A stretch of 64,000 nucleotides of DNA from a virus, in IMG/VR virus record IMGVR_UViG_3300037797_000117, positions 64,001 through 128,000 of that record, one strand, 5' to 3'. The notes under the pieces were generated by a model, which was given only the letters and a program-made list of their open reading frames with translations, ran no database searches and was not told where the DNA came from. A program made the position numbers and the translations under genes. Positions 2,178-63,342 of this stretch are shown piece after piece. Each line of letters starts with the position of its first letter. Position 1 is the first letter of the stretch.

Positions 2178-2207
2178 ATGGTACGCCGTTCCCCGGGTAC
2201 GGAGCAA
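2178..2207 (-). promoter_or_regulatory. operator-promoter copy 1 (leftward)
   Basis: TTGCTC-N18-TACCAT; spacer palindrome CGTACCCGGGGAACG. Confidence 0.7.
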
Positions 2208-2240
2208 CACGACGGTTTGGCGCCATCTGAACATCTAGCG

Positions 2241-2269
2241 TTGTGCCGTACCCCGGAAAGGGGTACCGT
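2241..2269 (+). promoter_or_regulatory. operator-promoter copy 2
   Basis: TTGTGC-N17-TACCGT; spacer CGTACCCCGGAAAGG. Confidence 0.7.
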
Positions 2270-2499
2270 CGAGGGAACAGCCAGGATGGTCGGAACCCCC
2301 GAGATCCCGCAAGGCGGACAGGCCGACCCAACACCACCGGATCGGCCTGTCCTGGTCTCCAACAACCCCCCGCGGATCGTCTGCCGCCCGAGCCCGCTAC
2401 CGACAGGCTCGCGCGAAACGCGAAACGACGCGCTCAGGTGAGGAGACGTTTCGACCCCGTCCATCCTGGCCCGACCGCCACTAGACCTGAAGGGTTCCC

Positions 2500-2991
2500 A
2501 TGACTGATGACGTATCCACCCATTCCGGCACCCTCGACCGCGACCGCCTCGTCACCGCGTACCGGGAGCTGCGCCGCATCGTCGACGTAGACCCGCTTAT
2601 CCCGGCGTTCCCTTCCTCCGTCCAGGTGTTCCAGGTCCTCTGCGACACACCCGGCTGGGACGAGCAGACCGCCCGCATGTACAGCATTGCCGCCCGATGC
2701 TGTTACCAGGACGGGGTCGACCCGGTCACCGGCCGGCCGCTGGCCGGGGAGGCAGCTATCCACCCGGTCCGGGTTGCTGAGGCCCGCAACCTGGTGTACT
2801 CGGTGCTTGCCGGCCTGGACCCGGCGGCGGCGTCCGCCGCGGCGGCGCGGGTGGTGAGCCTGCTCGCCGACGCCGGGTGGCGTCCCAGCGAAGTGCCGAC
2901 CGACCCGGCTGCGCACGCGACCGCGGTGGCGCGCGTTGTGAGCATGCTCCGCGGCGAGCCTCCGATCGAGGGGAATCAGCCGGCCCGTTAG
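2500..2991 (+). CDS. hypothetical protein
   Basis: 163 aa ORF with GAAGG RBS. Confidence 0.6.
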   Translation: MTDDVSTHSGTLDRDRLVTAYRELRRIVDVDPLIPAFPSSVQVFQVLCDTPGWDEQTARMYSIAARCCYQDGVDPVTGRPLAGEAAIHPVRVAEARNLVYSVLAGLDPAAASAAAARVVSLLADAGWRPSEVPTDPAAHATAVARVVSMLRGEPPIEGNQPAR

Positions 2992-3061
2992 GAGATCCCC
3001 GTGCCGGCGGGGCCGGTGCCTAGCTGTTCTGCACGGACCACATCTACGAGGAGGAAACAGA

Positions 3062-3784
3062 ATGATCAACCGTGTCCGCGGCGCTGTCGCCGTGGCGAAA
3101 GGCCGATGGCAGTGGCGCAAGGCTCGCAGCCTCGCCGACCTGGCCAACCTGCGAGCCGACCAGATCGCCCGCAACCTGCCCGGCGTGGGACGCCGGCCAC
3201 GGACTGCCTACCTGAACGGGGACGGCACGGTGCGGCTCGGCCCACCGGCGACCGCTGTCGAGCAGTCCACGAAGACCATGTACTCGGCGCTGGTCGCGCT
3301 CGGCCGGACCGGTGTGGTCGTCCACGACTGGCACCCGGGAACGTTCACCGAGGCCACCGGCGAGCACCCGGCCATGGCGACCAGGGCCTGCGTGGCCGGG
3401 TTCGCCGACGACGAAACGAAGGACTGGCTCGACAGCCTGCTGTACTACGCCGGCAAGGAGCCGGGCGCCACCGGCTACGAACTCGGATCCGTCCTCGACC
3501 TGTGGGCCCCCGGTCAAGAAGATTACGAACGGTGGGACGGGGTCGACGCCCACCGCTCCCGCGGTCACTGGGTCGAGCGCATCGACGACACCCCGACGGT
3601 CCGCATCGGCGACCAGATGACCGCCCGCGAGGTGTACCGGGCGTTCCCCACCCGCGGGCGTGTGCAGCGGGAGTTGCGGAAGGCGTGGCTGATCACGATC
3701 GTCGCACCGACGTGGGGCGACAACACGATGTTCGCCGACCTGCTCCCGCTGTTGGCCGGGGCCCGGCGCCCGGCTGAGGTCTAG
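3062..3784 (+). CDS. DUF6919-like protein, paralogue of 7606-8283
   Basis: WRKARSLADL...RACVAGFAD...WLITIVAPTWGDN pattern; GAGGAGG RBS. Confidence 0.65.
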   Translation: MINRVRGAVAVAKGRWQWRKARSLADLANLRADQIARNLPGVGRRPRTAYLNGDGTVRLGPPATAVEQSTKTMYSALVALGRTGVVVHDWHPGTFTEATGEHPAMATRACVAGFADDETKDWLDSLLYYAGKEPGATGYELGSVLDLWAPGQEDYERWDGVDAHRSRGHWVERIDDTPTVRIGDQMTAREVYRAFPTRGRVQRELRKAWLITIVAPTWGDNTMFADLLPLLAGARRPAEV

Positions 3785-3803
3785 CGCCCGGTTTCGGTCC
3801 AGG

Positions 3804-3846
3804 AAGCGCCGGGCCCGACCCCCTGGGGACGTTGGGCCCGGCGCTT
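3804..3846 (+). terminator. intrinsic terminator-like hairpin
   Basis: AAGCGCCGGGCCC...GGGCCCGGCGCTT followed by TCTT, just after a stop. Confidence 0.6.
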
Positions 3847-3862
3847 TCTTATGGTCCACATG

Positions 3863-3892
3863 TTGCGCCGTTCCCGGGGTACGCGTTACGGT
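3863..3892 (+). promoter_or_regulatory. operator-promoter copy 3
   Basis: TTGCGC-N18-TACGGT; spacer CGTTCCCGGGGTACG. Confidence 0.7.
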
Positions 3893-3930
3893 TGCTGTAT
3901 TCCCCGAACGGCCAATGCCAGGAGTTCACC

Positions 3931-4338
3931 ATGACCTCCCAGACGAAGACCCCCCGACGGGTGGGGTTCCTCCACGACCCCACCGGCGAACACCACGACG
4001 GCATGCCCACCTACCCGTGGGGCCTTGAACCCGGCGAAGACGGAGCCCCACCGGCCAACCTCGCCACCCGCCGCCAACTCGCCAAGATGGGCCTACGCCC
4101 CAACGGCCAGGAACACGTCGCCGAAATCCGCAAACTCGCCTACGGCTGGCTCGTAGCCAAGCTCTACCCGATCGCCGGGGCCGCACCGAAACGGCCCATG
4201 ACCGACGCCATGTGGCGGGCCGTCAACACCGCCGCCCGCTCCCGGTACCGGTGCAACACCTGCCCCCGCACCGACCTGGACTACATCCCGAAGCAAACCT
4301 CCCCGGTCTGGGGACGCTGCCACCACTGCTACCCCTGA
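3931..4338 (+). CDS. RRQRL-motif zinc-binding protein
   Basis: PTYPWG...LATRRQL.KMGLRP.GQ...CNTC...CHHC; family common on actinomycete plasmids and integrative elements. Confidence 0.8.
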   Translation: MTSQTKTPRRVGFLHDPTGEHHDGMPTYPWGLEPGEDGAPPANLATRRQLAKMGLRPNGQEHVAEIRKLAYGWLVAKLYPIAGAAPKRPMTDAMWRAVNTAARSRYRCNTCPRTDLDYIPKQTSPVWGRCHHCYP

Positions 4339-4349
4339 GGAGACCCGCC

Positions 4350-5675: not shown

Positions 5676-5704
5676 TTGTGTCGAACCCGGGGTACGGATA
5701 GGAT
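5676..5704 (+). promoter_or_regulatory. operator-promoter copy 4
   Basis: TTGTGT-N17-TAGGAT; spacer CGAACCCGGGGTACG. Confidence 0.7.
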
Positions 5705-6299: not shown

Positions 6300-6328
6300 T
6301 TGTTCCGTAACGCGGGTACGAGTATGGT
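6300..6328 (+). promoter_or_regulatory. operator-promoter copy 5
   Basis: TTGTTC-N17-TATGGT; spacer CGTAACGCGGGTACG. Confidence 0.7.
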
Positions 6329-8826: not shown

Positions 8827-8856
8827 TTGCGTCGTACCCCCGAAAGCCCGTACGGT
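8827..8856 (+). promoter_or_regulatory. operator-promoter copy 6
   Basis: TTGCGT-N18-TACGGT; spacer CGTACCCCCGAAAGC. Confidence 0.65.
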
Positions 8857-9607: not shown

Positions 9608-9637
9608 TTGTGCCGTACCCCGGTTTCGATGTACTGT
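9608..9637 (+). promoter_or_regulatory. operator-promoter copy 7
   Basis: TTGTGC-N18-TACTGT; spacer CGTACCCCGGTTTCG. Confidence 0.7.
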
Positions 9638-11724: not shown

Positions 11725-13368
11725 ATGGAGCGGAACACCGAACACGGAGCGCCGAAGAGTGCCGAATCGGCCCCCGGCGGTACCGCAGTACCCGCGGTAC
11801 CGGTGACCCCCGGTACCGCGGTACCGGTACCGCCCGCGGCCCGGCCGGTACCGGCACACCGCGCCCCGGTACCGACGACCGACACCGGCGGTACCAGTAC
11901 CGACAGCGGTACCGGTACCGCCGGCCGGTACCGCTGGTACCACCGGCTCGGCCGCCGGTACCGCCACACCGGTACCGGTACTGCCACCGCCGGTACCAGC
12001 CTCGCGGTACCGGCCGACGGGGCAGTACAGGTCTTCGGTACCGGTACCGGCGACCTGGTACCGGCCGCCGGGTACCGGTACAACCCGGTCGGTACCGAAG
12101 CAACGATCCGGGCCCACCTGCGCGACCTGCCGGTGCCGGCGGCCGGTACCGCCCGTCGGCACCGCAAGGCGGCGACCGGCACCACCACCGAGCCGGTGAC
12201 CTTCCTCGGCCGGATCTTCAAAGCGATCAGCACCATCTTCGAGATCGCCCCCCTGGCCGCGCCCCTGTTCGCCTCCGGCTGGTTCACCTACCTCGTCGTC
12301 ACCGACGAGTACGGCCTGAGCCAGCCGTGGCCGATCGCGGTGACCATGGTGCTCGGCCTCGAAGGTGTCGTCTGGACCCTCGCCAAGCTGTACGAGCAGC
12401 GGCTGGTCGCCGGCCACTCCACCATCGCCGACCGGCTCGGAATCCTGTTCGTCGTCAGCGCCATCGGCAGCCTCATCTACTGGCACTCCATGGTCGAGGC
12501 CAAGGCCCGCACCGCCGAGGCCAGGGCCGCCGCCGTGCTGGCCGGCATCGACCCGGACTTCGTCGTCGCCGCCAAGGCCGACTGGCGCGGTGCCGCCGTC
12601 GCCGCGTCCATGAGCGCGCTCGGCGTGTTCGTGTACGGGCGTAGGGCCAGGTGGAACCGCCGTGTCGAGCTGGAAGCCGAAGGCCGCGTCGACATGCAGG
12701 CCCTGCGGATCGGTCTCTGGCAGTGGATCGTCTCCCCCTGGGAGTCGACCTGGTCGTTCCGCCACGGCATGAAGTACCGGATCAAGCGCCCCACGGACGC
12801 GGTACGGGACTGGCGGCTGTGGAAGGAGATGGGCAAGCCCAAGCTGTGGCCGCCGGCCATGACCGCCGGTACCACCGGCACCAGCACCGACGAGACGGTA
12901 CCGGTACCGGCGTGGATGCTCGCCGAGCTACTCGGCAACGCCGCCGGTACCGGTACCGGCGGGGACCTGGTCGGTACCGGGTACCCGGTACCGACCTCGC
13001 CCGGCCCGGCCGGTACCGGTACCGGCGGTACGAGCTACGTACCGGTACCGCCGGCGAGCGTTGGCGGTACCGCGACCCGTACCGCCTCCGGCCCGGCCGG
13101 TACCGGAGCGCGCGGTCCCGGCGGTACCGGTACCGGTACCGCCGGGGACTCGGTGACGATCAGCCAGTACCGGCAGCGCAACGCCCACCGTCTCGACAAG
13201 ATCCGTAAGGTGCTCGACGGTACCGACGGCCGGCCGGATTGGCGGCTCGCCCCGGAAGCCGACCTGACCCTGTCCGTCATCACGGCCGCCGGCGGGTTCA
13301 GCAACCGCACCGACGCCGCCCAGTGCAAGTCGGTCCTCCTGGCCGACCGGCAGCGGGAAGGCGGATAA
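11725..13368 (+). CDS. SpdB2/DUF2637-like membrane protein with GGTACC-repeat-coded N- and C-terminal regions
   Basis: 4-TM core followed by RIGLWQWIVSPWESTWSFR; repeat-derived GT/VP/RY tracts. Confidence 0.7.
   Translation: MERNTEHGAPKSAESAPGGTAVPAVPVTPGTAVPVPPAARPVPAHRAPVPTTDTGGTSTDSGTGTAGRYRWYHRLGRRYRHTGTGTATAGTSLAVPADGAVQVFGTGTGDLVPAAGYRYNPVGTEATIRAHLRDLPVPAAGTARRHRKAATGTTTEPVTFLGRIFKAISTIFEIAPLAAPLFASGWFTYLVVTDEYGLSQPWPIAVTMVLGLEGVVWTLAKLYEQRLVAGHSTIADRLGILFVVSAIGSLIYWHSMVEAKARTAEARAAAVLAGIDPDFVVAAKADWRGAAVAASMSALGVFVYGRRARWNRRVELEAEGRVDMQALRIGLWQWIVSPWESTWSFRHGMKYRIKRPTDAVRDWRLWKEMGKPKLWPPAMTAGTTGTSTDETVPVPAWMLAELLGNAAGTGTGGDLVGTGYPVPTSPGPAGTGTGGTSYVPVPPASVGGTATRTASGPAGTGARGPGGTGTGTAGDSVTISQYRQRNAHRLDKIRKVLDGTDGRPDWRLAPEADLTLSVITAAGGFSNRTDAAQCKSVLLADRQREGG
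11779..12150. repeat. GGTACC cluster 1 (about 22 copies), candidate clt
   Basis: Counted by eye; copies fall in all three reading frames. Confidence 0.85.
12868..13224. repeat. GGTACC cluster 2 (about 17 copies), candidate clt
   Basis: Counted by eye; includes tandem GGTACCGGTACCGGTACC at 13123-13140. Confidence 0.85.
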
Positions 13369-18672: not shown

Positions 18673-18701
18673 TTGTGTCGTACCCCGGCTTCGGGTAACA
18701 T
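18673..18701 (+). promoter_or_regulatory. operator-promoter copy 8 (dnaB)
   Basis: TTGTGT-N17-TAACAT; spacer CGTACCCCGGCTTCG. Confidence 0.7.
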
Positions 18702-18796
18702 CAACTTCTCCGAGTGGCGAGAACTGGACTCCCACCCCGGACCGAGATGGAGCACCACATGCTCACCGCCCCTACCCCCTCCTGCCCGGAGTGGCG

Positions 18797-20161
18797 ATGA
18801 CCACCACCGTCACCCGCCCCGTCGACGCCGACCGCTCGCCGCCCAACGACCTCAACGCCGAAATGGCCGTCCTCGGCGCCATGCTGATCTCCAAAGACGC
18901 CATCGCGGACATCGTCGAGATCCTTCAGGGCAGCGACTTCTACCGCCCCCACCACACCGCGATCTTCGACGCCGCCATCGGCCTCTACAACGACGGCGAC
19001 CCGGTCGACGCCATCTCCGTCACCGACGCCCTCACCACCTCCAACCCCGCCGCGTTCACCCGCATGGGCGGTGCCAGCTACCTCCACGACTGCATGCACG
19101 CCGCCCCCACCGCCGCCAACGGCGGCTACTACGCCGGCATCGTCAAAGAGCACTCCATCGAACGGCGCCTCATCGAAGCCGGCACCAAGGTCGTCCAGTA
19201 CGGCTACGGCACCGCCGGCACCGGCCTCGACGTCACCGAACGCCTCGACATGGCCCAACGAGCCGTGTACGACGTCGCCAACACCGACGCCACTGACGGG
19301 TTTACCGCCCTCGACGACCTCCTCCAACCAACCCTCGACGAAATTGAGGAATGCGGTGCCCAGGGCGACGGCATGCGCGGCGTCCCCACCGGGTTCACCG
19401 ACCTTGACCGGCTCCTCAACGGGCTCGCCCCCGGCCAACTCATCGTCGTCGCCGGCCGGCCCGGTCTCGGAAAGTCGACAGCAGGGCTGGACTTCTGCCG
19501 CTCGGCGTCGATCCGGCACGGCCAGGCCAGCGCCATCTTCTCCTTGGAGATGAGCAAGGTCGAGGTGGTGACACGGCTCCTGTCCGCTGAGGCCCGGGTT
19601 CCGCTGCAAGTGCTCCGGTCGGGGCGGCTGAACGACGACGACTGGACGAAGCTGGCCCGCCGCATGGGCGAGATCAGCGGGGCGCCACTGTTCGTCGACG
19701 ACACGCCGAACATGTCCCTCATGGAGATCCGGGCCAAGGCCCGCCGGCTCAGGCAGCGTCACGACCTGAAACTCATCGTGGTCGACTACCTGCAACTCAT
19801 GACCGTGCCGAGGCGGGGAGATTTCAACCGCCAGAACGAGGTGGCCGAACTGTCGCGGGGGCTGAAGCTACTCGCGAAGGAGGTCGAGTGCCCGGTGGTC
19901 GCGGTCAGCCAGTTGAACCGCGGCCCGGAACAGCGTACCGACAAACGCCCCCTCCTGTCCGATTTGAGAGATTCGGGCGCAATCGAGCAAGATGCGGATG
20001 TTGTCATACTTTTGCACCGCGACGACTACCACGACAAGGAATCCGTCCGGGCAGGCGAGGCCGACTTCATCGTGGCCAAGCACCGAAACGGACCGACCGA
20101 CACCATCACCGTCGCGGCGCAGCTTCACCTGTCCCGGTTCGTTGACATGGCCATCGTCTAG
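18797..20161 (+). CDS. dnaB: replicative DNA helicase
   Basis: AGRPGLGKST, FSLEM, VVDYLQLM, SQLNRGPEQR, SDLRDSGAIEQDAD, KHRNGP. Confidence 0.97.
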   Translation: MTTTVTRPVDADRSPPNDLNAEMAVLGAMLISKDAIADIVEILQGSDFYRPHHTAIFDAAIGLYNDGDPVDAISVTDALTTSNPAAFTRMGGASYLHDCMHAAPTAANGGYYAGIVKEHSIERRLIEAGTKVVQYGYGTAGTGLDVTERLDMAQRAVYDVANTDATDGFTALDDLLQPTLDEIEECGAQGDGMRGVPTGFTDLDRLLNGLAPGQLIVVAGRPGLGKSTAGLDFCRSASIRHGQASAIFSLEMSKVEVVTRLLSAEARVPLQVLRSGRLNDDDWTKLARRMGEISGAPLFVDDTPNMSLMEIRAKARRLRQRHDLKLIVVDYLQLMTVPRRGDFNRQNEVAELSRGLKLLAKEVECPVVAVSQLNRGPEQRTDKRPLLSDLRDSGAIEQDADVVILLHRDDYHDKESVRAGEADFIVAKHRNGPTDTITVAAQLHLSRFVDMAIV

Positions 20162-20533: not shown

Positions 20534-20562
20534 TTGTGCCGTACCCCCGAATCGGCTAACGT
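20534..20562 (+). promoter_or_regulatory. operator-promoter copy 9
   Basis: TTGTGC-N17-TAACGT; spacer CGTACCCCCGAATCG. Confidence 0.7.
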
Positions 20563-21826: not shown

Positions 21827-22366
21827 ATGGCCGGAGATACCACGATCACGATCATCGGCAACCTGACCGACGATCCGGAGCTGCGGTTCACGCCGTCCGG
21901 TGCGGCCGTGGCCAAGTTCCGCGTCGCCTCGACGCCGCGGTTCATGGACCGGCAGACCAACGAGTGGAAAGACGGCGAACCGCTTTTCCTGGCCTGCACC
22001 GTGTGGCGGCAGGCGGCCGAGAACGTCGCCGAGTCGCTGCAACGCGGCGCCCGGGTGATCGTCTCCGGCCGGCTCAAGCAGCGCAGCTACGAAACCCGCG
22101 AGGGCGAGAAGCGCACCGTCATGGAGTTGGAGGTCGACGAGGTCGGCCCCTCGCTCCGCTACGCCACCGCCAAGGTGCAGAAGATGCAGCGCACCAACGG
22201 GGGGACCGGTGGCGGGTTCGGCGCGTCGGGTTCCACACCGGCAGGCAACGGCGGGGGAGCGGCCGCCGGCGGCGGCGGCTACGCCGACGATCCGTGGGCC
22301 AGCGGATCCCCCGCCACAGCGGGCGGGGCAAAGGCGGGCGACTTCAACGACGAGCCGCCCTTCTAA
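21827..22366 (+). CDS. ssb: single-stranded DNA-binding protein
   Basis: [23 protein letters not shown]...acidic tail DEPPF. Confidence 0.97.
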
Positions 22367-23927: not shown

Positions 23928-23956
23928 TTGCCCCGTACCCAGGGTACGGATACTCT
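23928..23956 (+). promoter_or_regulatory. operator-promoter copy 10 (perfect palindrome)
   Basis: TTGCCC-N17-TACTCT; spacer CGTACCCAGGGTACG. Confidence 0.75.
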
Positions 23957-24021: not shown

Positions 24022-26043
24022 ATGGCCAGCAAAACCGGCTACGTCAACTCCGGACAGTTCTGCACCATCGGAGATGTCGGCGTCACCCGCGCCGGTACCC
24101 GCCTGGAATGTATCGCCGTCGACGGTAAACGTGCCCGCATGCGTATGCCCGCCGGCGAAACCGCCAAGTCGAAAATCCGCAAGCGGGAACGCCGCACCCC
24201 TGCCGACCGGGCCGCCGACGCCCTACGCCCCTCCGAGGTCGGCCACCTGCGCCGCCTCGCCGGCCTGCCCTCCGACCAGGCGAAGATGCGCCGCAAATCC
24301 CAACTCGACAAGCTCCGCACCGCCGGGTTCGTCGACGACCAGGGCGACCTGACCGACGCCGGCCGCGACGCGTTGCGCCGCTGCGGCCAACTCGACGACA
24401 CAACCCCGAAGATCGACCGCTCCGACAACGCCGTCACCGACTGGTCGACCTTCAGCGTGTGCCCGACCTGCGGTGCCGACCTGACCGAGCCGTGCCACGA
24501 CCTGCGCGACCGGGGCAGCCTCAACGCCACCCCGCACGCCGGACGGCCCCACCAGGCCAGCGACACGCTAGCCGAGATCGACCAGCGGGTGGCGGGCAAG
24601 AAGGCCGCGGAAGAGTACCGGCTGGAAAATCACCCGGCCGCGTACGACCTGCGCAACCACCCGGACCGGTTCGTCGGCAAGACCGTTACCGTTACCTCCC
24701 CCAGCTACGGCGGGACGCCGGGAACGACCTACACCGGGGAGCTGGAGTCGGCGCCGTACACCCCGGGAATGTCGCACGTCGTGGTCCGGATCAAAGGCGT
24801 CGACGGCACGGTCCGGTTGGACCCCTCGGCCCCCGTCACCGTCCACGACCGGTCCGCCCAGGCCGGTACCGACTGGTCCCGGTTCGGTATCTGCCCGGCC
24901 TGCACCGCCGCCACCGGCCAGCCGTGCCACGACCTGGGTTCCCCCGGCTCGCTGAACGCGACACCGCACGACGGCCGACCCGCCATCCTGAACCGCGACA
25001 ACGAAGCCGCGGCCGATGTCCGTGCCCGGGACATCGCGGCCGACAAGAAGCTGTCCGACGTCCTGACCCAGGCCGACGAGGACGGCGACCTGACCAACCA
25101 CGACCTGGACAACGCATGCTCGCTGGGCCTGTGGCACACCGGCCCGTGCGTACCGAAGGACGGGCCGGCCCCGCCCGCCGACGACGAGGCCAAGTTCCAG
25201 GCAACCCGCAGCCGGCAGGCCGATATCGACGCCGGCCGGGCCGCGGCCAAGACCGCGGCCGAGGTCGACGAGCTCCGCGCCGAAGGCCACGACGACGTCG
25301 CCCGGCAGCGGCTCACCGACCGGATCGGCCACGACCACCCCAACTGGACTCCTGACCAGGTGAAGAACGAAACCGACCGGATCATGAACGACCCGTGGGC
25401 CGACGCCGCCCAGCACCACACCACCCCGATCGGCGCGGCCGGCGGCACCGAACCCTACGACCCGGCCCGGCACACCGCCATCGGTGACGCCCCCACCGCC
25501 GGCACGCCGGTCACCGTCGTGCGGCCGGGTGCCCAGTGGGGGAGCGGCGACGACACCACCCCGATCGAGAAGGCCCACGTCGCCGACACCGGCCGGCCGG
25601 TACCGGCCCGGCTCGACCCGTCGCTGCCGGTCGAGGACCGTATCCGCGCTGCCTACGACGATCTGAAGAACCGCAAGGACAGCTACGTTCCCGTCGCGGA
25701 CCTGCGGGCGGCCCTGCCCGATGTGCCGAATGACCAGTTCGACGCCACGCTGCGCCGGATGAGTCGCGCCGACGGGGACGCCTACACCGTGCCGGAGTCC
25801 AACCAGAAGGCACTCACCGAGCACCGGCGGGCTGGGGCGCTGTGGATGGGGAATCAGGACAGGCACATCGTTTCCTTCCCGGGTCGTGACTCCGAACCGA
25901 CCGGGGCGTTGGTACAGAGCCCGGGCCAGTGGGATGTCCTGCCTGCCGATGTGGCCGAGCGGGTCCGTGAGTTGTACGGCGATCAGGCGATGCCCAGCCG
26001 TGCGGCGGATACCGGCTCAGCGATGCCGCAGGCCGGTCTGTAA
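24022..26043 (+). CDS. multidomain protein: duplicated CxxC...C...H zinc finger, GrpE-like beta segment, C-terminal wHTH-like domain
   Basis: TDWS.F..CP.C...PCHDL...GSLNATPH.GR twice; EPYDPARH...VTVVRPG; V.VADLRAAL...FDA.L. Confidence 0.7.
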   Translation: MASKTGYVNSGQFCTIGDVGVTRAGTRLECIAVDGKRARMRMPAGETAKSKIRKRERRTPADRAADALRPSEVGHLRRLAGLPSDQAKMRRKSQLDKLRTAGFVDDQGDLTDAGRDALRRCGQLDDTTPKIDRSDNAVTDWSTFSVCPTCGADLTEPCHDLRDRGSLNATPHAGRPHQASDTLAEIDQRVAGKKAAEEYRLENHPAAYDLRNHPDRFVGKTVTVTSPSYGGTPGTTYTGELESAPYTPGMSHVVVRIKGVDGTVRLDPSAPVTVHDRSAQAGTDWSRFGICPACTAATGQPCHDLGSPGSLNATPHDGRPAILNRDNEAAADVRARDIAADKKLSDVLTQADEDGDLTNHDLDNACSLGLWHTGPCVPKDGPAPPADDEAKFQATRSRQADIDAGRAAAKTAAEVDELRAEGHDDVARQRLTDRIGHDHPNWTPDQVKNETDRIMNDPWADAAQHHTTPIGAAGGTEPYDPARHTAIGDAPTAGTPVTVVRPGAQWGSGDDTTPIEKAHVADTGRPVPARLDPSLPVEDRIRAAYDDLKNRKDSYVPVADLRAALPDVPNDQFDATLRRMSRADGDAYTVPESNQKALTEHRRAGALWMGNQDRHIVSFPGRDSEPTGALVQSPGQWDVLPADVAERVRELYGDQAMPSRAADTGSAMPQAGL

Positions 26044-26147: not shown

Positions 26148-26660
26148 GTGACCGACGTCGAGGCGGCAGTGGCCACGTTCCACCGGTTTCTGGGGCAGCC
26201 CGGACCTGACCGGCCCAGCCTGGAGCAGCACGCGGCCCGCCGCGACCTACGGATCGCCCTCCTCGAAGGGGAGACGGCCGAACTGGTGGCCGCGATCCGG
26301 GCGGGTGACCTGACAGCGATCGCGCACGAGCTCGCCGACCTGGCCATCGCCGTCTACGGAACGGCCCACACGTACGGGCTGCCCCTGAACGAGGTGGTGG
26401 CCGTGGTCCACAGGTCGAACATGACCCGGACCCCGACCGCTTCCGGCAAGGCCGTGAAAGGTGTCGGATACGTGTACCCGGACGTAGGGAAGGTTCTCGA
26501 CGCGGCGGCCGCGCGTCCGGATCAGCGGCCGGCGTTCCGGTTCCCGACCGGCCGGCCCGAGTGGCTGGGGACGTTCCAGGAGTGGCCGTGTGGGAGCTGC
26601 GGGAAGGAGGCGGATGACTCGACGAAGCATTTCTGCCGGCCGACCACCACCCGCCTCTAA
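26148..26660 (+). CDS. MazG-like/PRA-PH NTP pyrophosphohydrolase
   Basis: LLEGETAEL...AHELADL...VHRSNM. Confidence 0.8.
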   Translation: MTDVEAAVATFHRFLGQPGPDRPSLEQHAARRDLRIALLEGETAELVAAIRAGDLTAIAHELADLAIAVYGTAHTYGLPLNEVVAVVHRSNMTRTPTASGKAVKGVGYVYPDVGKVLDAAAARPDQRPAFRFPTGRPEWLGTFQEWPCGSCGKEADDSTKHFCRPTTTRL

Positions 26661-26662
26661 CA

Positions 26663-26691
26663 TTGTGCCGTACCCCTGAATCGGGTACCGT
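26663..26691 (+). promoter_or_regulatory. operator-promoter copy 11
   Basis: TTGTGC-N17-TACCGT; spacer CGTACCCCTGAATCG. Confidence 0.7.
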
Positions 26692-29061: not shown

Positions 29062-29223
29062 GAGACATTACCGAACAGGAGGCAGGATCATGGAGAAGTT
29101 TTCAGTCAGGCTGCTACGCGCGCTGGCCGGGCCACCGGACCCGCCGAATCCGTACCCCGGTGACGACGCGCCGTTCTGGCGTCGGCTGCTGTGGGCGTTG
29201 GCCGGAGGCTACCGGTGACCGAC

Positions 29224-29532: not shown

Positions 29533-29831
29533 TGGGCGCCGTACCTGCCGAGATCGCCAACGCAGTTCAGCAGCTCGATGACGTAGGCATGCCGGGAATC
29601 GACGGCCGCATCGTCGCCGCGGTCCTCGCGGCTCATCCACACCTGGTGCACGAGGCCCAGGAATGGGGATGGGGTGACACCGAGGTCCGCGACGGTCTGT
29701 TCGTCAGCCTGTGGGCATACCTGACCGGCGGCGACCCTCACGCGCGAGTCGACGAGTCCGAACGAACCGAGCAGATTTACGCGTCCCAGCGTGCCTGGCT
29801 CTCGGCCCGATCGAACGCGGAATCGCCGTGA
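29532..29831 (+). CDS. hypothetical protein
   Basis: TGATG overlap. Confidence 0.6.
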   Translation: MGAVPAEIANAVQQLDDVGMPGIDGRIVAAVLAAHPHLVHEAQEWGWGDTEVRDGLFVSLWAYLTGGDPHARVDESERTEQIYASQRAWLSARSNAESP

Positions 29832-30232
29832 CGACCGAGCCTGCCACGGTAGTTGTCGAGGACCGGGCCGCCGACGCCCGGCAACTCGTCAAGCACCTGA
29901 TGGTCATACGGATGGGACACGGCGTGAGCCAGGAAAAGCTCGCGAAACGGGTGGGTGTTTCGCAGCAGGTCCTCAGCTCCTGGGAGCGTGGGGTTTGCCG
30001 ACCTACACGGCGGTCGCTGCGCCGGTGGGCGTTGGCGCTGGGGCAGGAACCGCTACCTGAGCGGCTCCCGGTCCGGGACAAGTGCGGTACCACACCCGGC
30101 TACCAGGTCCACCAGCGGCGCGGCGAGCCCCCGTGTGACCCGTGCACCGATGCGAACACCGAGTTCATGCGGGCGTACCGCGCGGCCCGACGCGGCCTGT
30201 CGACGCGCCCAACCGAGAAAGGCAGATCATGA
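29828..30232 (+). CDS. XRE-family HTH regulator with C-terminal zinc motif
   Basis: VSQEKLAKRVGVSQQVLSSWERG; CGTTPGYQVH...CDPC. Confidence 0.85.
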   Translation: MTTEPATVVVEDRAADARQLVKHLMVIRMGHGVSQEKLAKRVGVSQQVLSSWERGVCRPTRRSLRRWALALGQEPLPERLPVRDKCGTTPGYQVHQRRGEPPCDPCTDANTEFMRAYRAARRGLSTRPTEKGRS

Positions 30233-33640: not shown

Positions 33641-33691
33641 GGCACAACACGCGCCCTGCAACTACGGAAGGTGCAGGGCGCGTGTTGTGCC
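33641..33691. repeat. 20-bp perfect inverted repeat overlapping a -35 box
   Basis: GGCACAACACGCGCCCTGCA-N11-TGCAGGGCGCGTGTTGTGCC. Confidence 0.8.
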
Positions 33692-33713
33692 GAAACGGGG
33701 GTACGGGTACAGT
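33685..33713 (+). promoter_or_regulatory. operator-promoter copy 12
   Basis: TTGTGC-N17-TACAGT; spacer CGAAACGGGGGTACG. Confidence 0.7.
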
Positions 33714-36616: not shown

Positions 36617-36645
36617 CTATGCCGTACCCGCGAAACCAGTACCGT
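36617..36645 (+). promoter_or_regulatory. operator-promoter copy 13 (weak -35)
   Basis: CTATGC-N17-TACCGT; spacer CGTACCCGCGAAACC. Confidence 0.5.
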
Positions 36646-38035: not shown

Positions 38036-38237
38036 CCTGAACCACATGAACCTGGCCCTGATCGTGGCCGCTGTCGCGGTCGGTGTGTTCACCCGCCGCT
38101 GCCTTGCACAGTGGCTGGATATCGCTCTCGACGAGCAGTAGCACCGCGCAGGCCGGACTCGCGTGCCTGGCCTGCGCTGCCCTACCCTTGGCGACCAAAT
38201 GTTCGTTTCTTCCTGGACGTGTCTGGAGCCGACCGCC

Positions 38238-38693
38238 ATGGCCGACCACCCTCCTGCCCTGTCCGACCGGGACAGGCTTGTCCTGCACGAGCTGCTCAAC
38301 AACTGGAACCGGGCTCGTACCGCCGCCGACCTCGGCCGCGCCATCCGGCTGCCGGCCGGGGCGGTCGCCGACGTTCTGCGTGGCCTGGCCGACGGTGCGT
38401 GGGTGGACGTCACCACCATGGGCCGGACCCGGTTCTACCAACTGGTTGAGGCGCACCTGCCAGCCGCAGCGGCCGCCGTCGGGCGGACCACGCCGCAGAT
38501 CCCCGCATCTGCCCCGCTGCCGGTGGTCGACCGCCCGGCCAAGCCGCCAGCGGCGGCCGCCGCTGGCGAGGATCGGGTGTGGACGGTTCCGCAGTTGCGG
38601 GCTGCGGTCGCGCGCGGTGAGGAGAAGCCGGCGACGCTGGCGTACGTGGAGAAGACGATCGCTGCGCTGCGGGAGAGAGCCCGCGGGGAGTAG
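38238..38693 (+). CDS. winged-helix DNA-binding protein
   Basis: LSDRDRLVL...TAADLGRAIRLPAGAVADVLRGLADGAWV. Confidence 0.65.
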   Translation: MADHPPALSDRDRLVLHELLNNWNRARTAADLGRAIRLPAGAVADVLRGLADGAWVDVTTMGRTRFYQLVEAHLPAAAAAVGRTTPQIPASAPLPVVDRPAKPPAAAAAGEDRVWTVPQLRAAVARGEEKPATLAYVEKTIAALRERARGE

Positions 38694-41090: not shown

Positions 41091-41285
41091 TTAGCCGGCG
41101 GGCTTGTCCCGGTCCCGCAGCGCGATCACATCATCCGCCCGGAACCGGCGGTGGCCACCCAACGTGCGGATCGACGCCAACTGGCCCGAGGCAGCCCACC
41201 GGGTGACCGTTTTCGGATCAACCCCGAACATGTCGGCAACCTCCGACGGCGTCATCAGGTCCTCTGTCTCACGTTTCTTCCTCAC
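41091..41285 (-). CDS. bldC: BldC-family MerR-like transcriptional regulator
   Basis: LMTPSEVADMFGVDPKTVTRWAASGQLASIRTLGGHRRF closely matches the BldC signature. Confidence 0.9.
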   Translation of the reverse strand: MRKKRETEDLMTPSEVADMFGVDPKTVTRWAASGQLASIRTLGGHRRFRADDVIALRDRDKPAG

Positions 41286-42097: not shown

Positions 42098-42523
42098 ATG
42101 GCAGGGGATTTCGACCACTTCCGGACCCGGCTGACGATCGAACGGCAGCTCCGCGGATGGTCCCAAGCCCACCTCGCTACCCAACTCGGCGTCAACCCGT
42201 CCGCGGTGTCCCAATGGGAACTCGGCCACCGCCGCCCCACCGCCGCCAACGCCCACCGCTGGGCCGCCACCCTCAATGTCCCCTTGCCGGACGCCACCGA
42301 CGGCTGGTTCAGCCGCCTGGACCGGATGAAACAGCCCGTCCACGGCACCCGCAACGGCTACCAGTGGCACCAACGCAACAACGACCTCCCGGCGTGCGGG
42401 CCGTGCCGGGACGCCGGCGCCCGCTACACCGCCGGCCGTAAAGCGGCCCGCCTCCAACGCGAAGCGGCCGAACCCCCTCAGATACAGGGCTCGGCCGCTT
42501 CACACCGGGGTGGGGCCAGCTAG
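42098..42523 (+). CDS. XRE-family HTH regulator with C-terminal zinc motif
   Basis: WSQAHLATQLGVNPSAVSQWELG; HGTRNGYQWH...CGPC. Confidence 0.85.
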   Translation: MAGDFDHFRTRLTIERQLRGWSQAHLATQLGVNPSAVSQWELGHRRPTAANAHRWAATLNVPLPDATDGWFSRLDRMKQPVHGTRNGYQWHQRNNDLPACGPCRDAGARYTAGRKAARLQREAAEPPQIQGSAASHRGGAS

Positions 42524-46221: not shown

Positions 46222-46316
46222 GCGGCCGATCTGCTATCGAAGCAACAGGGCATTAACTGCGTCTGACCAGCACAAACACGATCGGCCCAACCATTGACGC
46301 TTGCCTAAACGATCAC

Positions 46317-46344: not shown

Positions 46345-47721
46345 GGTGAAATCGGGCAATCCGTCGAGCCAGTGCAGTGCCGTACGCCTCCCGCTCACCC
46401 TCCGACCGACACCCCGGACCCCGTCGTGATCGAGGCCGAAGTTGTCGCCGACACCGGGGCCGCGCCGGGCCGCAGAGAGTTGATCGTGCGCGGGCGGGCA
46501 GCCCTCGCCGATCTCGACCGCAACCCTGACGACTGGGTCGACGCCGACGTCGACGCCGAGCTGCGTGACGCCATGCCGCGTAACACCCGGCTGGCCTACG
46601 AGTACCAGTGGGGTCGCTGGATCTGGTGGTGCGGCACGAAGGGCCGCGAGCACTGCCCCGCCAGGCCGGGCAGTGTGCGGCAGTACATCAAGGAACACTG
46701 GGACATGACCGACGCGCAGGGCCGTAAGCGTGGCTGGCGGGGCCGGCCGTACGCGCCGGCCAGCGTCGAGCAGGCCGTGTACGTGGTGTCCGCGGTGCAC
46801 CAGTGGTTCGGGTACGCGTCGCCGACGAAACACCCGTCGGTGAAGTTGCAGCTCAAGGCGTACGACAAGCGGTGGAAGGCTGCCGGGTACCGGCAGCGGA
46901 AGGCGTACGCGCTGACGTTGGAGGAGAACGTCGCGGTCGCCCGCACGTGTAGCCGGGCCACGGTGGGAGGGGTGCGTAACGCGTGCGCGTTCCGGCTCCA
47001 GTGGGACATGGGCGCGCGGGTGTCCGAGCTGCTCGGGGAATCCAACGAGGCCGGGGTCTGGCGTGGGCTGCGGATCGGTGACCTGCGGTGGGAGTCCGAC
47101 GACCGGGCGGTCATCCACATTGCCCAGACGAAGACGCACGAGTCGCGTGACGTCGCCGTCGAGGCGACCCGGTGGCTGGTCGACGACAACGACCAGTTCA
47201 TCGACGAGGCCGGCCGGCTGATCCCGCTCGACAATGCCGGCGAGCCGACCCGGCCGCCGGTCCCCCACCCGTACGTCGACGTCGACCCGCTGATCCTGCT
47301 GCGCAGCTGGTACGACCTGCTGGTCACCCGTGGCCAGGCCCACCCGGACGCGCCGCTGTTCCGCGAGGTCGCCTCGACGGGTCGGATGCGGAAGGACGGC
47401 ACCCCCGCTGGTGGCATCCTGCCGGGGCCGTGGGGGTACGAGGCGTTCTCGATCGAGTTCGACCGGTGCGTACGCCGGGCCAGGGTCCACGTCGACCCGG
47501 TCACCGGTGAGGAGCGGCACATCACGTCGCACTCGAACCGGTCGGGGCTGATCACCGAAGCGGTCGACGCGGGGGTGCCGGCGGAGATTCTGCGGCTGCG
47601 AACCGGGCATGCGGCCGGGTCGCGGGTGCTCCAGGGCTACTACCGGTCGGGTCGCAAGTGGGGGCGGCACAACCCGGGGACGGTCATCCGTAGGACCCGG
47701 CGCCGGGCGGTTCCTGCCTGA
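46336..47721 (+). CDS. tyrosine recombinase (Cre/XerD-like resolvase or integrase)
   Basis: GARVSELL (R), ITSHSNRSG (HxxR), TGH...QGYYR (H, Y). Confidence 0.9.
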   Translation: MPTGEIGQSVEPVQCRTPPAHPPTDTPDPVVIEAEVVADTGAAPGRRELIVRGRAALADLDRNPDDWVDADVDAELRDAMPRNTRLAYEYQWGRWIWWCGTKGREHCPARPGSVRQYIKEHWDMTDAQGRKRGWRGRPYAPASVEQAVYVVSAVHQWFGYASPTKHPSVKLQLKAYDKRWKAAGYRQRKAYALTLEENVAVARTCSRATVGGVRNACAFRLQWDMGARVSELLGESNEAGVWRGLRIGDLRWESDDRAVIHIAQTKTHESRDVAVEATRWLVDDNDQFIDEAGRLIPLDNAGEPTRPPVPHPYVDVDPLILLRSWYDLLVTRGQAHPDAPLFREVASTGRMRKDGTPAGGILPGPWGYEAFSIEFDRCVRRARVHVDPVTGEERHITSHSNRSGLITEAVDAGVPAEILRLRTGHAAGSRVLQGYYRSGRKWGRHNPGTVIRRTRRRAVPA

Positions 47722-54328: not shown

Positions 54329-54358
54329 TTGCGTCGTTCCCGGGGTACGGGGTACGGT
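54329..54358 (+). promoter_or_regulatory. operator-promoter copy 14 (heads the tRNA/ncRNA array)
   Basis: TTGCGT-N18-TACGGT; spacer CGTTCCCGGGGTACG. Confidence 0.7.
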
Positions 54359-60231: not shown

Positions 60232-60304
60232 TCCGCGCTGGTGCAACTGGCAGCACGCTCGGCTCTGACCCGAGAGATTGGACGTTCAAATCGTCCGCGC
60301 GGAG
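60232..60304 (+). tRNA. tRNA-Gln(CTG)
   Basis: Loop CTCTGAC; U1-A72; G73. Confidence 0.88.
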
Positions 60305-61010: not shown

Positions 61011-61011
61011 T

Positions 61012-61182
61012 GGTCGCTGTAGCTCAACAGGTAGAGCAGCGGACCACCGGACGATAGGTACGCGCTGAACAACGACGCCGTGCCTGGCCGCCTCTGTTGG
61101 ACTCTGCGCCGCATGCGGGACGTACGCCTCGGCTCCAGTCCGGTGCCTCCGTGGGTTGCGGGTTCGAGCCCCGCCGGCGGCC
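61012..61182 (+). ncRNA. His-type tRNA-like RNA (G-1:C73) with a 104-nt insert in the anticodon loop
   Basis: GGTCGCTG/CGGCGGCC, canonical D and T arms, GCGGA/TCCGT stem extended by CACCGGAC/GTCCGGTG. Confidence 0.75.
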
Positions 61183-61188
61183 CTCAAT

Positions 61189-61278
61189 TGTCGTGTAGCT
61201 CAATTGGTGAGAGCACCCGCACCGAGCGGGGCCGGGCGACGGCCCGGACGGATGCCGGTTCGACTCCGGCTGCGACAG
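61189..61278 (+). ncRNA. tRNA-like RNA with a 5-nt anticodon loop and long variable arm (G73)
   Basis: TGTCGTG/TGCGACA; CCCGC-ACCGA-GCGGG; CCGGGC-GACG-GCCCGG. Confidence 0.65.
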
Positions 61279-61284
61279 CTCGTG

Positions 61285-61403
61285 GAATCGTGTAGCTCAA
61301 CTGGCAGAGCACCGTCGTGTGGACGTAGCCGGCCCCTCAGGAGGAGACGGCCTAAGCGCGATACCCGGGCGATGCGGAGTTCGATCCTCCGCCACGATCC
61401 CCA
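61285..61403 (+). ncRNA. His-like tRNA-like RNA with expanded anticodon and variable region
   Basis: ATCGTG/CACGAT acceptor, C73 plus CCA; CCGTC-GTGTGGA...-GACGG with a 29-nt loop. Confidence 0.65.
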
Positions 61404-61515
61404 CCAACCGGCGCCCATCGTGGACGGTCGGGTGATCCGGAGGTGTCGGCGTATCTGCCAGGGCGATCTGTCGTTGGCTAGAGGCCCACCGTGTCCACGC
61501 CGAAAGGATCACCCT

Positions 61516-62025
61516 GTGCGTCGGTTCCGTTATCTGGCCCTGTCCGTTCTGGCGATCGGGCTGGCTACCCTGTTCGCGCCTACCGCTGCGCACGCCGCGG
61601 TGACTCCGGGGGCGTGGTGTAAGAAGGCAGAGACCGGCGCATACGGCCAGTCAACCGACGGCGACTGGTACCGGTGCACCCTGAACGCCGGGGCCACGCT
61701 TCCCAAATGGATGCCGTCGTCCCCGCCGCCGCCCGGGCAGAACCCCAGCGCTCCGGCCCCGTCGAAGCGGACCCCGGACGGGCCGTGCCTGGACAGCGAA
61801 GCCGGGCAGGAGTTCAGCACCTCCGCGGGCAAGCTGTACGTGTGCCAGAAGAAGGGCACCAGCTACGCGTGGACCCTCGTCACCGGCGGCGACGACCAGC
61901 CGGGAACGCTACCAAAGACCGGCGTCGACGGGCGGGTCGCGGCCGCAGCCGGCACAGCGCTTGTCGCCGCCGGCGGTGGCCTGTTCTGGGCGATGCGCCG
62001 CCGCCGTGTGAGTTTCCAAGCCTGA
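61516..62025 (+). CDS. sortase-anchored (LPXTG) surface protein
   Basis: Signal peptide ending AHA, LPKTG, TM, RRRR tail. Confidence 0.85.
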   Translation: MRRFRYLALSVLAIGLATLFAPTAAHAAVTPGAWCKKAETGAYGQSTDGDWYRCTLNAGATLPKWMPSSPPPPGQNPSAPAPSKRTPDGPCLDSEAGQEFSTSAGKLYVCQKKGTSYAWTLVTGGDDQPGTLPKTGVDGRVAAAAGTALVAAGGGLFWAMRRRRVSFQA

Positions 62026-62043
62026 CCCGACCCTGAGCAAGCA

Positions 62044-62080
62044 AGCGAGCCCGGCCCCCCATCACAGGGCCGGGCTCGCT
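62044..62080 (+). terminator. hairpin
   Basis: AGCGAGCCCGGCCC/GGGCCGGGCTCGCT. Confidence 0.5.
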
Positions 62081-62091
62081 CTGGTCGGAAC

Positions 62092-62165
62092 GCCGGCGTA
62101 GCTCAGGTTGGTTGAGCAGCGCACTTGTAATGCGAAGGTCGCCGGTTCAAATCCGGCCGCCGGCT
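62092..62165 (+). tRNA. tRNA-Thr(TGT)
   Basis: Loop CTTGTAA. Confidence 0.9.
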
Positions 62166-62188
62166 CGTTCGTCTGGGTAAGGAGGAAT

Positions 62189-62503
62189 GTGGAGCTGGAC
62201 TTCTCCGAGTTTCACCCGACCGGGGACCACTGGCCCGGCACCGCGCGCTGCCAGGCCCTCTACGGGGGGTGGCGCCGACACCTGTACCTGGCATGGGTGT
62301 TTCACCGCCGTGACCAGGTGCTCGGCCCGTTCCGGAAGGTGTTGTGCTGCCCGTTCGGCCGGCACCGGTGGCAGGTCTGGTACAGCCAGGAGGAGCACGG
62401 CGGCCCGGCGCAGGTTCACCCGCTGTGCCCGGACTGCGAAACCACCCGGCTCCCGTCCGAACACGACGTCGACAACAAGCCGGACCTGCCATGGCTGGAG
62501 TAG
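62189..62503 (+). CDS. hypothetical protein
   Basis: AAGGAGG RBS; CPFGRH...CPDC. Confidence 0.65.
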   Translation: MELDFSEFHPTGDHWPGTARCQALYGGWRRHLYLAWVFHRRDQVLGPFRKVLCCPFGRHRWQVWYSQEEHGGPAQVHPLCPDCETTRLPSEHDVDNKPDLPWLE

Positions 62504-62612
62504 CCGGACTCATCTTGGCTTCCCGACGAGAGGAAGAACAGCGTGGAAGGTGCACCAGCTCCCGAGACGTAGAGAGCCCGAAACGCGGGCTCCCTACGCG
62601 AGGGAGCAGACG

Positions 62613-63020
62613 ATGTCCGACACGGACAAGGACCAGCCCTGGTGGGTGACCGCCGAATGGTGGGAGCCCAGCCACACCTACTGTGACGTGTCCGCCTCGC
62701 GCCCGTTCGGCGCGCGTGGACCCCGCCGCCCGTGTAACCTGCCCGCCCGGCCGGTCGTCGCCCGTGACCGGCCCGGGTTCTCCGGGTGGCGCCGCGAACC
62801 CCGCTGCCGCTGGTGGCCTGTCTGGGACCGGCCGGGCCGCCGGTACGCGCTCGGCGGCGTGCCCCGCTGGTTCGTCCACCACGTGTGGACCGGCGCCGAA
62901 CGGGCCGCGGTGCGAGACGACTGCCGCCGCGCGGCCGCCGAGTACCACGCCACCCGCGAAGTCGACACCATGCCCAGCGTCAGGCAGCATCGGCACAACG
63001 CGATGTGGCTCTGGGACTGA
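62613..63020 (+). CDS. hypothetical Trp/Arg-rich protein
   Basis: MSDTDKDQPWWV...HRHNAMWLWD; GGGAG RBS. Confidence 0.65.
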   Translation: MSDTDKDQPWWVTAEWWEPSHTYCDVSASRPFGARGPRRPCNLPARPVVARDRPGFSGWRREPRCRWWPVWDRPGRRYALGGVPRWFVHHVWTGAERAAVRDDCRRAAAEYHATREVDTMPSVRQHRHNAMWLWD

Positions 63021-63231
63021 ACCGAAGGGAGAGCCGACGTGGTCTACCCCCGACGCTGCCCGGTCTGTTCCGCCCCGGGTGGCTTCCACGACTACGGCGT
63101 CCACGCCGATGTGCGGCGCCAGATCGCCGAGGCCGCACCCGTCACCCCGGACGAGCCCGGCGAGGACGGCGGGGTGGTGACGATCCGGACGGACGACAGG
63201 CTCTAGCCTCGCGTCCGGGATGTGGGGAATT

Positions 63232-63304
63232 GCCGGGGATGCATTACGGGTGGTGCGTCCGTTTCGTACGCGGAAGGAGCCGGTTCGAGCCCGGCCCCCC
63301 GGCT
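63232..63304 (+). tRNA. tRNA-Thr(CGT)
   Basis: Loop TTCGTAC; GCCGGGG/CCCCGGC; slightly irregular D arm. Confidence 0.75.
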
Positions 63305-63312
63305 CCCCCACA

Positions 63313-63342
63313 TTGTGTCGCTCTGGGGGTACGGGGTACGCT
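63313..63342 (+). promoter_or_regulatory. operator-promoter copy 15
   Basis: TTGTGT-N18-TACGCT; spacer CGCTCTGGGGGTACG; ATG 7 nt later suggests a leaderless mRNA. Confidence 0.65.

Follow-up and report, generated by a model that had tools for sequence, protein, structure and literature searches.

What places the same 15-bp palindrome between the -35 and -10 boxes of promoter after promoter along a virus genome, and what kind of protein would read it? The question arises from a 64,000-nucleotide stretch (hereafter the window), bases 64001-128000 of the 166,387-bp virus record IMGVR_UViG_3300037797_000117, which IMG/VR classes as having direct terminal repeats. A sequence-only reading of the window had listed 15 such promoters and proposed that one dimeric regulator, bound within the spacer, switches most of the element together. 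We identify 24 sites of this kind across the whole genome and propose that they are operators of a phage-encoded repressor, laid over promoters for the host sigma factor and switched together as a set. We regard this account as fairly probable. Coordinates below are those of the window unless they are marked as genome positions.

A family of 24 promoters with a palindrome in the spacer

The family was defined with a two-block weight matrix built from the 15 listed sites (the -35 box with 8 nt, and the -10 box preceded by 3 nt), which was run over both strands of the whole genome with spacers of 16-19 bp allowed. At a score of at least 16 it matches 20 places on the plus strand and 4 on the minus strand (24 in all), where the reversed sequences give 1 and 0. 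Dropping one poor match and adding one site with a right half only yields the 24 promoters treated here. Fifteen lie in the window and are the very sites first listed, the whole-genome scan adding none there; the other nine are at genome positions 12574(-), 49299, 50305, 52088, 53470, 53829, 59047, 137172(-), and 137870.

Placement is highly regular. As had been claimed, all 15 window sites fall between gene calls, several of them directly 3' of a GC-rich terminator-like hairpin with a T-run. Over the whole family 23 of 24 sites are wholly intergenic, the exception being that at genome 50305, which at its -35 end runs into the 3' end of a called gene. Every site (24/24) is co-oriented with the next gene, the start of which mostly lies 60-125 bp downstream (range 36-667 bp).

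The palindrome is exclusive to these spacers. There are 9 copies with at most one mismatch to CGTACCCNGGGTACG, where 30 Markov shuffles lead one to expect 0.13, and every one of the 9 lies in a promoter spacer; with up to two mismatches there are 14 against 1.7 expected, 12 of them in the promoter family. The perfect copy reported at 23934-23948 is present, and a second lies outside the window at genome 50311. A dyad-like stretch with two mismatches at 29151-29165 falls in a 42-codon open reading frame (29091-29219) with a strong ribosome-binding site, and we read it as chance; the gene caller had missed this reading frame. From the side of the promoters, 22 of the 25 intergenic matches to TTGNNN-N17/18-TANNNT in the whole genome are family members.

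Comparison of motif frequency with coding sequence and with chromosomes, suggested as a check on the sequence-only reading, fails to refute it. Near-dyads are confined to promoter spacers, and the 14-nt core TTGYGYCGTACCCC, which occurs 11 times in the 166-kb phage genome, stands at chance level in 401 sampled Actinomycetes genomes (26 occurrences against about 25 in a reversed control, at most 2 per genome). This sample includes one unpublished genome, G016, with a single match, and no claim depends on it. Exact scans of IMG/VR for TTGTGCCGTACCCCGG and CGTACCCNGGGTACG returned single matches only, without promoter context; these we read as chance, the exact site not being used by other viral contigs there.

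Anatomy of the sites

The consensus unit consists of TTGYGY, a 15-bp dyad CGTACCC-N-GGGTACG, and then TAnnnT, promoter and operator together spanning 29-30 bp. The TTG of the -35 box is kept in 23-24 of the 24 sites, and the T, A, and final T of the -10 box in all of them; the spacer measures 17 bp in 14 sites and 18 bp in 10. The operator invariably (24/24) fills spacer positions 1-15 and so overlaps the promoter core, at what would be roughly -29 to -15 judging from the box positions. Around a free centre base, conservation is symmetric column by column, as seen in the paired columns of the dyad:

Columns 1 and 15: C in 21/24, G in 20/24
Columns 2 and 14: G in 24/24, C in 22/24
Columns 3 and 13: T in 19/24, A in 16/24
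Columns 4 and 12: A in 19/24, T in 16/24
Columns 5 and 11: C in 19/24, G in 15/24
Columns 6 and 10: C in 23/24, G in 24/24
Columns 7 and 9: C in 20/24, G in 19/24

Beyond 3 nt upstream of the -35 box or downstream of the -10 box, the flanks mostly hold 0.02-0.3 bit, and with so little conservation there the family is not a recently copied block. When self-complementarity was scored at every possible axis, the dyad axis fell on the 8th spacer base, index 13 counted from the initial T of the -35 box (0.59 against a median of 0.25).

Each site had been described as a variant of the palindrome. This holds for the position of the dyad in every case and for its full form in only 9 of the 24 sites, where both halves match at 6/7 or better; the rest have one good half, the left in 9 sites and the right in 6. 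A perfect 7/7 half-site is present in 23/24. Right-only sites (e.g. CGATTCCGGGGTACG) are the reverse complement of the left-only type (e.g. CGTACCCCGGAATCG) at the same 15 positions, and such mirrored half-sites on either side of a fixed axis point to a symmetric DNA-binding dimer rather than to an asymmetric polymerase contact. The weak partner half is no random GC-rich sequence: the inner GG persists, often the outer CG as well, and a triplet rich in A/T separates the two (GAAWC). There is a single operator per promoter: cooperative tandem arrays in the style of OR1-3 were not found, nor were isolated or tandem copies elsewhere in the genome. The dyad can also be set aside as an RNA terminator, since RNA with a stem of 7 bp and a loop of 1 nt cannot form a hairpin and the site lies upstream of the predicted transcription start.

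Related phages keep the scaffold and replace the palindrome

The window has a G+C content of about 69% and 15 tRNA calls (ARAGORN), 14 of which form a single array. Terminase, portal, and major head genes lie in the left arm. The window encodes a tyrosine-integrase-like protein (46426-47721; a weak match below the Pfam cut-off), an Xis-like HTH_17 protein of 64 aa (41091-41285, minus strand), which is the sole MerR-superfamily match of the phage, and HTH_3 regulators. Given the structural genes, the weak integrase match, the Xis-like protein, and the HTH_3 regulators, the virus is by its gene content a large temperate siphovirus-like phage with a high-GC actinobacterium as its host.

Megablast and tblastn against 50,697 phage records found no near relative. 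The portal protein reaches a best identity of about 38% at most, to Gordonia and Rhodococcus phages, and single-protein scans for relatives with DnaB and portal gave no matches. Relatives were found only through alignment of a DUF932 (PF06067) protein, whose gene lies at genome 50.4 kb in a promoter-dense block. Its homologues are many and sit on long environmental contigs; the loci compared come from IMG/VR, metagenomes, and one Pseudonocardiaceae metagenome-assembled genome (MAG), and the DUF932 gene on the contig of that MAG, at 45% identity, is the only hint of host taxonomy. With the phage studied here denoted G000, and with DUF932 identity given first, the loci are:

L055: 71%; 1 promoter, of the G000 type
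L056: 70%; 10 promoters in 21 kb, with the same motif and the same one-perfect-half rule
L057: 63%; 2 promoters, of the G000 type
L058: 59%; 4 promoters, with CGTACCG-N-CGGTACG in 3/4
G001 (an 81-kb provirus): 58%; about 15 promoters, with CCCGC-N9-GCGGG on a TTGCCC...TAnnnTAG scaffold
L060: 50%; 4 promoters, with CTCAGTC-G-GACTGAG-like 15-mers at the same 15 positions
L084 (the MAG contig): 45%; 2 promoters, with palindromes of GTAGCTAC at the edge of the -35 box and directly 3' of the -10 box

Contigs of relatives include WUUC01011548.1 (94 kb, with the same dyad) and JACCDR010906962.1 (of the L058 type). The L058 dyad departs from that of G000 at position 7 (C to G) and position 9 (G to C) together. 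Despite differing spacer sequences, index 13 is the best axis in L058 (0.78), L060 (0.64), and G001 (0.62), as it is in G000. Between G000 and L056, orthologous promoters differ in the weak half, and in one case also in which side is the strong one, yet a perfect half is always kept; the L056 orthologue of promoter 9608, for example, has an operator that differs only in its weak half. With the -35 box, the -10 box, and the axis retained while both dyad halves change by lineage, the pattern is the mark of an operator that evolves in step with a DNA-binding protein of its own. The proposal of one dimeric regulator on a spacer operator gains support from the symmetric information, the fixed axis, the two-sided half-sites, and the lineage-specific dyads.

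The MAG contig represents a distant relative with a differently arranged operator set. Four copies of GTAGCTACACGG surround its DUF932 gene (L084:7950-9225; DASWTI010000245.1), at the -35 edge, after the -10 box, and once inverted.

Candidate regulators

Two HTH_3 proteins of the window are the best candidates for regulators of the dyad:

29828-30232, plus strand: HTHa, 134 aa, with HTH_3 at the N-terminus and, at the C-terminus, a Cys motif that we interpret as a zinc ribbon; inside the regulon
42098-42523, plus strand: HTHb, 141 aa, 36% identical to its paralogue HTHa and built in the same way; in the lysogeny module, where family operators are absent

HTHb adjoins the Xis-like gene, upstream of the integrase-like gene, and both proteins match PHROG families labelled transcriptional repressor. 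Such an arrangement would be in keeping with one regulator for lytic growth and another for the prophage. Their C-terminal motif, GYxxHxR...C..C, has a similar counterpart (Pfam Phage_zn_bind_8) twice in a 673-aa protein (24022-26043). Pfam and PHROG scans of about 88 proteins returned mostly unknowns, and the comparison with L056, the closest relative, covers 21 kb, short of the region that corresponds to HTHa and HTHb.

Among the proteins common to the G000, L056, L058, and G001 loci we found no clear DNA-binding protein or regulator; those shared are the DUF932 protein, a 238-aa acidic protein, a 113-aa protein, an RRQRL zinc-binding protein, and membrane proteins. The RRQRL protein occurs only in lineages with a CGTACC-type dyad, which may reflect kinship alone. 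At 135 aa (3931-4338), it resembles Actinomycetota clusters named "RRQRL motif-containing zinc-binding protein", with a feature score of 0.94 and a recognition value below the reliability line. Its gene stands directly behind a family promoter in G000 and L058 and about 430 bp behind one in L056. A WhiB-like gene (genome 53546-53806) lies directly downstream of the family promoter at genome 53470; since its product is 53% identical in G001, whose dyad differs, the WhiB-like protein is unlikely to set dyad specificity.

A proposed phage-encoded repressor weighed against other explanations

We propose that host RNA polymerase carrying the primary sigma factor would read the TTGYGY / 17-18 bp / TAnnnT promoters, and that a phage-encoded symmetric dimer, seated on the dyad between the boxes and covering the face required by polymerase there, would block it. 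Early, replication, accessory, and tRNA units would then be shut or opened together, either while the phage is a prophage or through a shut-off early in the lytic cycle. A perfect half-site on at least one side would be obligatory, and the quality of the second half would probably grade affinity between promoters. TTG, a 17-18 bp spacer, and TAnnnT suffice for the primary sigma factors of actinobacteria. A search for sigma factor domains in the phage gave none of region 2 and, for region 4_2, only two weak matches below the cut-off. We infer that the promoters are active and that binding represses them, repression being the most economical choice because the 17-18 bp spacing and the invariant letters are already good and the phage lacks a detectable sigma region 2 of its own; a temperate lifestyle, as the weak integrase match and the Xis-like gene indicate, would moreover need a global repressor.

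Several observations weigh against this account. The weak halves are consistently A/T-rich (GAAWC) rather than randomly degenerate, which hints at a second constraint beyond the simple model, and a further GGGTAC often overlaps the -10 box. A scanner for the E. coli consensus (at least 9/12 matches) finds no family site between 1500 and 10000 of the window. In L056 an axis at index 16.5 scores slightly above index 13 (0.51 against 0.48). As for the binder, homologues of HTHb other than itself were not detected in a collection of 5.8 billion proteins, HTHa homologues were not found in IMG/VR, and an HTH_3 protein was not found in G001; with G001 lacking one, regulators of different lineages may belong to different families.

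The alternative that survives best, unlikely as we judge it, makes the dyad the site of a required phage activator or sigma-appropriation factor, MotA-like as in T4 or MerR-like, by which a middle-gene regulon would be switched on together. It draws on a -35 box, TTGYGY, that shares only 3/6 positions with TTGACA, on the failure of the promoters in the E. coli-type scan, and on the presence of the dyad in nearly every canonical-looking phage promoter (the 22/25 intergenic matches), as if it were needed for activity; a WhiB-like sigma-binding protein is also encoded just downstream of one family promoter. The spacers, however, at 17-18 bp fall short of the 19-20 bp length for which MerR-type activation compensates, which makes the spacer-twisting activator once considered for this site improbable, and the only MerR-superfamily match is the 64-aa Xis-like protein. 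A dimer centred near -22 would lie between the boxes, where polymerase binds, on promoters of a form that the primary sigma factor should already accept, and the WhiB-like gene is retained in G001 alongside an entirely different dyad.

Nor do we find it likely that no trans-acting factor takes part, the 35-bp unit being a duplicated promoter cassette or an intrinsic element read by polymerase and its symmetry incidental. The dyad, at one mismatch or fewer, is indeed never found away from a promoter; GGGTAC recurs at the -10 box, beside it or inside it, and the conserved bases of G001 stay close to both boxes. Yet the near-absence of information in the flanks, together with the variable centre base and -10 nnn, argues against recent duplication, and a perfect half occurs on either side of the fixed axis. 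Relatives replace both halves together with the axis kept, and orthologous G000 and L056 promoters turn over the weak half and keep the perfect one.

A host regulator (LexA-like, CsoR-like, or another global repressor) through which the phage would sense the state of its host is the most doubtful of the alternatives: the half-site is like that of actinobacterial LexA, xTACCC-N-GGGTAx recalls CsoR-type operators, and the candidate phage regulators are not tied to the dyad, but the likeness to the LexA box pointed out earlier proves superficial (CGTAC-N5-GTACG against CGAAC-N4-GTTCG, different in spacing and base, in a site that changes among related phages, as a conserved LexA site of the host should not), a true LexA box occurs in 0 family promoters, no CsoR-family (PF02583) match was found in the phage genome at E up to 1 although control genomes respond, the 14-nt core is at chance in the 401 genomes (a sample outside which the true host may lie), and unrelated dyads at the same place in related phages fit private phage regulators better. 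Matches to the LexA core with at most one mismatch lie mostly in coding sequence and in no family promoter.

Within the preferred account of a phage-encoded repressor, we also entertain, with little confidence, a more elaborate version. The three site types (both halves, left only, right only, with a weak partner that is always A/T-rich GAAWC) would then not be simple decay and would form a code read by HTHa and HTHb as homo- and heterodimers, or as a CI-like/Cro-like pair; the paralogue of the lysogeny module would hold all 24 promoters off in the prophage, the paralogue within the regulon would shut subsets one after another in the lytic cycle, and the regulon would be rewritten together with its regulators. 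If this were true, it would amount to immunity switching at the scale of a regulon (15-24 sites) across a phage group.

Individual promoters and reach of the set

The window holds the following family promoters, with downstream genes as predicted from position:

2178..2207, minus strand (-35 at 2207 down to -10 at 2178): operator CGTACCCGGGGAACG, both halves; divergent partner of 2241, predicted to drive the 238-aa gene 1426-2142 (minus strand)
2241..2269, plus strand: operator CGTACCCCGGAAAGG, left half perfect
3863..3892, plus strand: operator CGTTCCCGGGGTACG, both halves; after a terminator-like hairpin at 3830-3843, predicted to drive the RRQRL zinc-binding gene 3931-4338
5676..5704, plus strand: operator CGAACCCGGGGTACG, both halves
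6300..6328, plus strand: operator CGTAACGCGGGTACG, right half perfect; just 3' of a terminator-like hairpin
8827..8856, plus strand: operator CGTACCCCCGAAAGC, left half only
9608..9637, plus strand: operator CGTACCCCGGTTTCG, left half perfect; predicted to drive a DUF2637/Spd-like gene (weak match)
18673..18701, plus strand: operator CGTACCCCGGCTTCG, left half perfect; predicted to drive dnaB (18797-20161)
20534..20562, plus strand: operator CGTACCCCCGAATCG, left half only; SSB (21827-22366) lies within its operon
23928..23956, plus strand: perfect operator CGTACCCAGGGTACG, dyad at 23934-23948; upstream of the 673-aa zinc-finger protein and the MazG-like gene
26663..26691, plus strand: operator CGTACCCCTGAATCG, left half only
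33685..33713, plus strand: operator CGAAACGGGGGTACG, right half perfect; the -35 box directly adjoins a hairpin
36617..36645, plus strand: weak -35 box CTATGC; operator CGTACCCGCGAAACC, left half only
54329..54358, plus strand: operator CGTTCCCGGGGTACG, both halves, with a second GGGTACG overlapping the -10 box; heads the tRNA array
63313..63342, plus strand: operator CGCTCTGGGGGTACG, right half perfect; predicted to drive a vWA-TerF-like gene

The genes named at the outset as lying behind these promoters are only partly the right ones. DnaB, the tRNA array, and the vWA gene stand, the Spd-like gene stands on a weak match, and the supposed MazG/NDT operon needs revision: promoter 26663 comes downstream of the MazG-like gene (26148-26660), for which 23928 is the promoter, and no NDT domain was found in the genes tested. 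Promoter 26663 probably also serves the HTH gene 29828-30232, since the next family promoter comes only at 33685.

The regulon takes in an early block (genome 49-59 kb), a replication and accessory block (genome 66-101 kb, with dnaB, SSB, MazG-like, and DUF2637 genes), the tRNA array, the vWA-TerF gene, and a divergent pair at genome 137 kb. One further member is an isolated FtsK-like gene in the structural arm, with its site at genome 12.6 kb; all the rest fall within genome 49-138 kb. The earlier picture of an element-wide regulon has to be given up, as the structural genes, the lysogeny module (37-54 kb of the window), and the right-arm minus-strand cassette are without family promoters.

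The lysogeny module has signals of other kinds. At 46301 (genome 110301) lies the only canonical-looking promoter without the dyad, and the only plausible outsider among the 25 intergenic matches: TTGCCT, an A/T-rich 18-bp spacer, and TAAGAT, about 125 bp upstream of the integrase-like gene. The intergenic sequence CGACCAAATGTTCG at 38192-38205 departs from the actinobacterial LexA core by a single mismatch; it lies just upstream of a weakly MarR-like gene (38238-38693), which may be an SOS-controlled gene of this region.

Some family transcripts share features in their 5' leaders. CTGGAC(C/T)CC occurs in four, at 18724 (the dnaB leader) and at genome 49361, 52137, and 53516, and is followed 8-16 nt later by GAGATGAGG or GAGATGGAG(C/A)AC, then 2-6 nt and ATG. 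The purine-rich stretch is probably the ribosome-binding site, and the leader as a whole may be a shared translational control element. In three other leaders (3900, 20571, and 36670) the decamer TTCCCCGAAC stands downstream of the -10 box and ahead of the ribosome-binding site, and the similar GTTCCCCAAG lies downstream of the promoter at genome 12574(-).

A 547-aa gene (11725-13368) beside a TraB-like gene contains 39 copies of GGTACC, mostly as CCGGTACCGG, in two clusters. We do not count these as operators because the flanks in CCGGTACCGG differ from the half-site CGTACCC. The cluster looks like a separate feature, for instance a clt-like array or coding repeats, and its core resembles the L058-type half-site CGGTACG.

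Implications and comparison with known systems

Such a set of operators could let one protein silence some 80 kb of early, replication, accessory, and tRNA genes, or release them. The 24 sites provide a testable map of transcription organisation in a very large temperate actinophage, and the relatives offer a natural series in which a regulator and some two dozen operators would change specificity together. When their regulators have been identified, these units of 29-30 bp, which combine promoter and switch, could be a source of orthogonal control elements for high-GC actinobacteria.

The closest parallels in site design are the OR and OL operators of lambdoid phages such as lambda, 434, and P22, which are read by CI and Cro. 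There, as here, dyads of 14-17 bp overlap the promoter core, and lineage-specific (heteroimmune) operators sit on a conserved promoter scaffold; the outer half-sites are about 10 bp apart in our sites, as in 434. Lambdoid operators are read by dimeric HTH proteins, whereas in the present phage the readers are candidate HTH_3 proteins only. Lambda has six operators in two cooperative triplets, in contrast to the at least 24 dispersed single operators described here, many with one good half.

The Streptomyces phage phiC31 is likewise temperate and has many copies of one conserved inverted repeat near its early promoters, bound by its repressor. Both are temperate actinophages with a single inverted repeat repeated at early units, but the phiC31 repeats lie beside promoters not of the primary-sigma type, and those studied here are inside a canonical -35/-10 spacer. 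The LexA SOS box, TCGAAC-N4-GTTCGA, is also a palindrome with a CGnAC-type half that often lies within promoters; it differs in having GAAC/GTTC in place of GTAC and N4 in place of N5 between pentamers, and the dyad of our phage is not conserved among related phages.

In number and spread of sites the nearest system is that of L5 and other Cluster A mycobacteriophages, whose immunity repressor has more than 20 13-mer sites (operators and stoperators) across the genome, with repressor and sites evolving into new immune specificities (PMC9283540, PMC6550527). Those sites are asymmetric, bound by a monomer through two domains, and active in a single orientation with respect to transcription; they occupy short intergenic spaces as well as promoter regions and are proposed to halt elongation (PMC9283540). 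The present phage is alike in carrying more than twenty sites across an actinophage genome. Unlike the L5 type, its sites are dyads, where only one half is strong this is the left (9 sites) or the right (6 sites), and near-perfect copies occur only in promoter spacers. The control logic that we propose is already known from lambdoid phages and Cluster A mycobacteriophages and is not new in kind; what is notable here is its 24 copies, the explicit rule of one perfect half, and relatives that carry swapped dyads on one scaffold.

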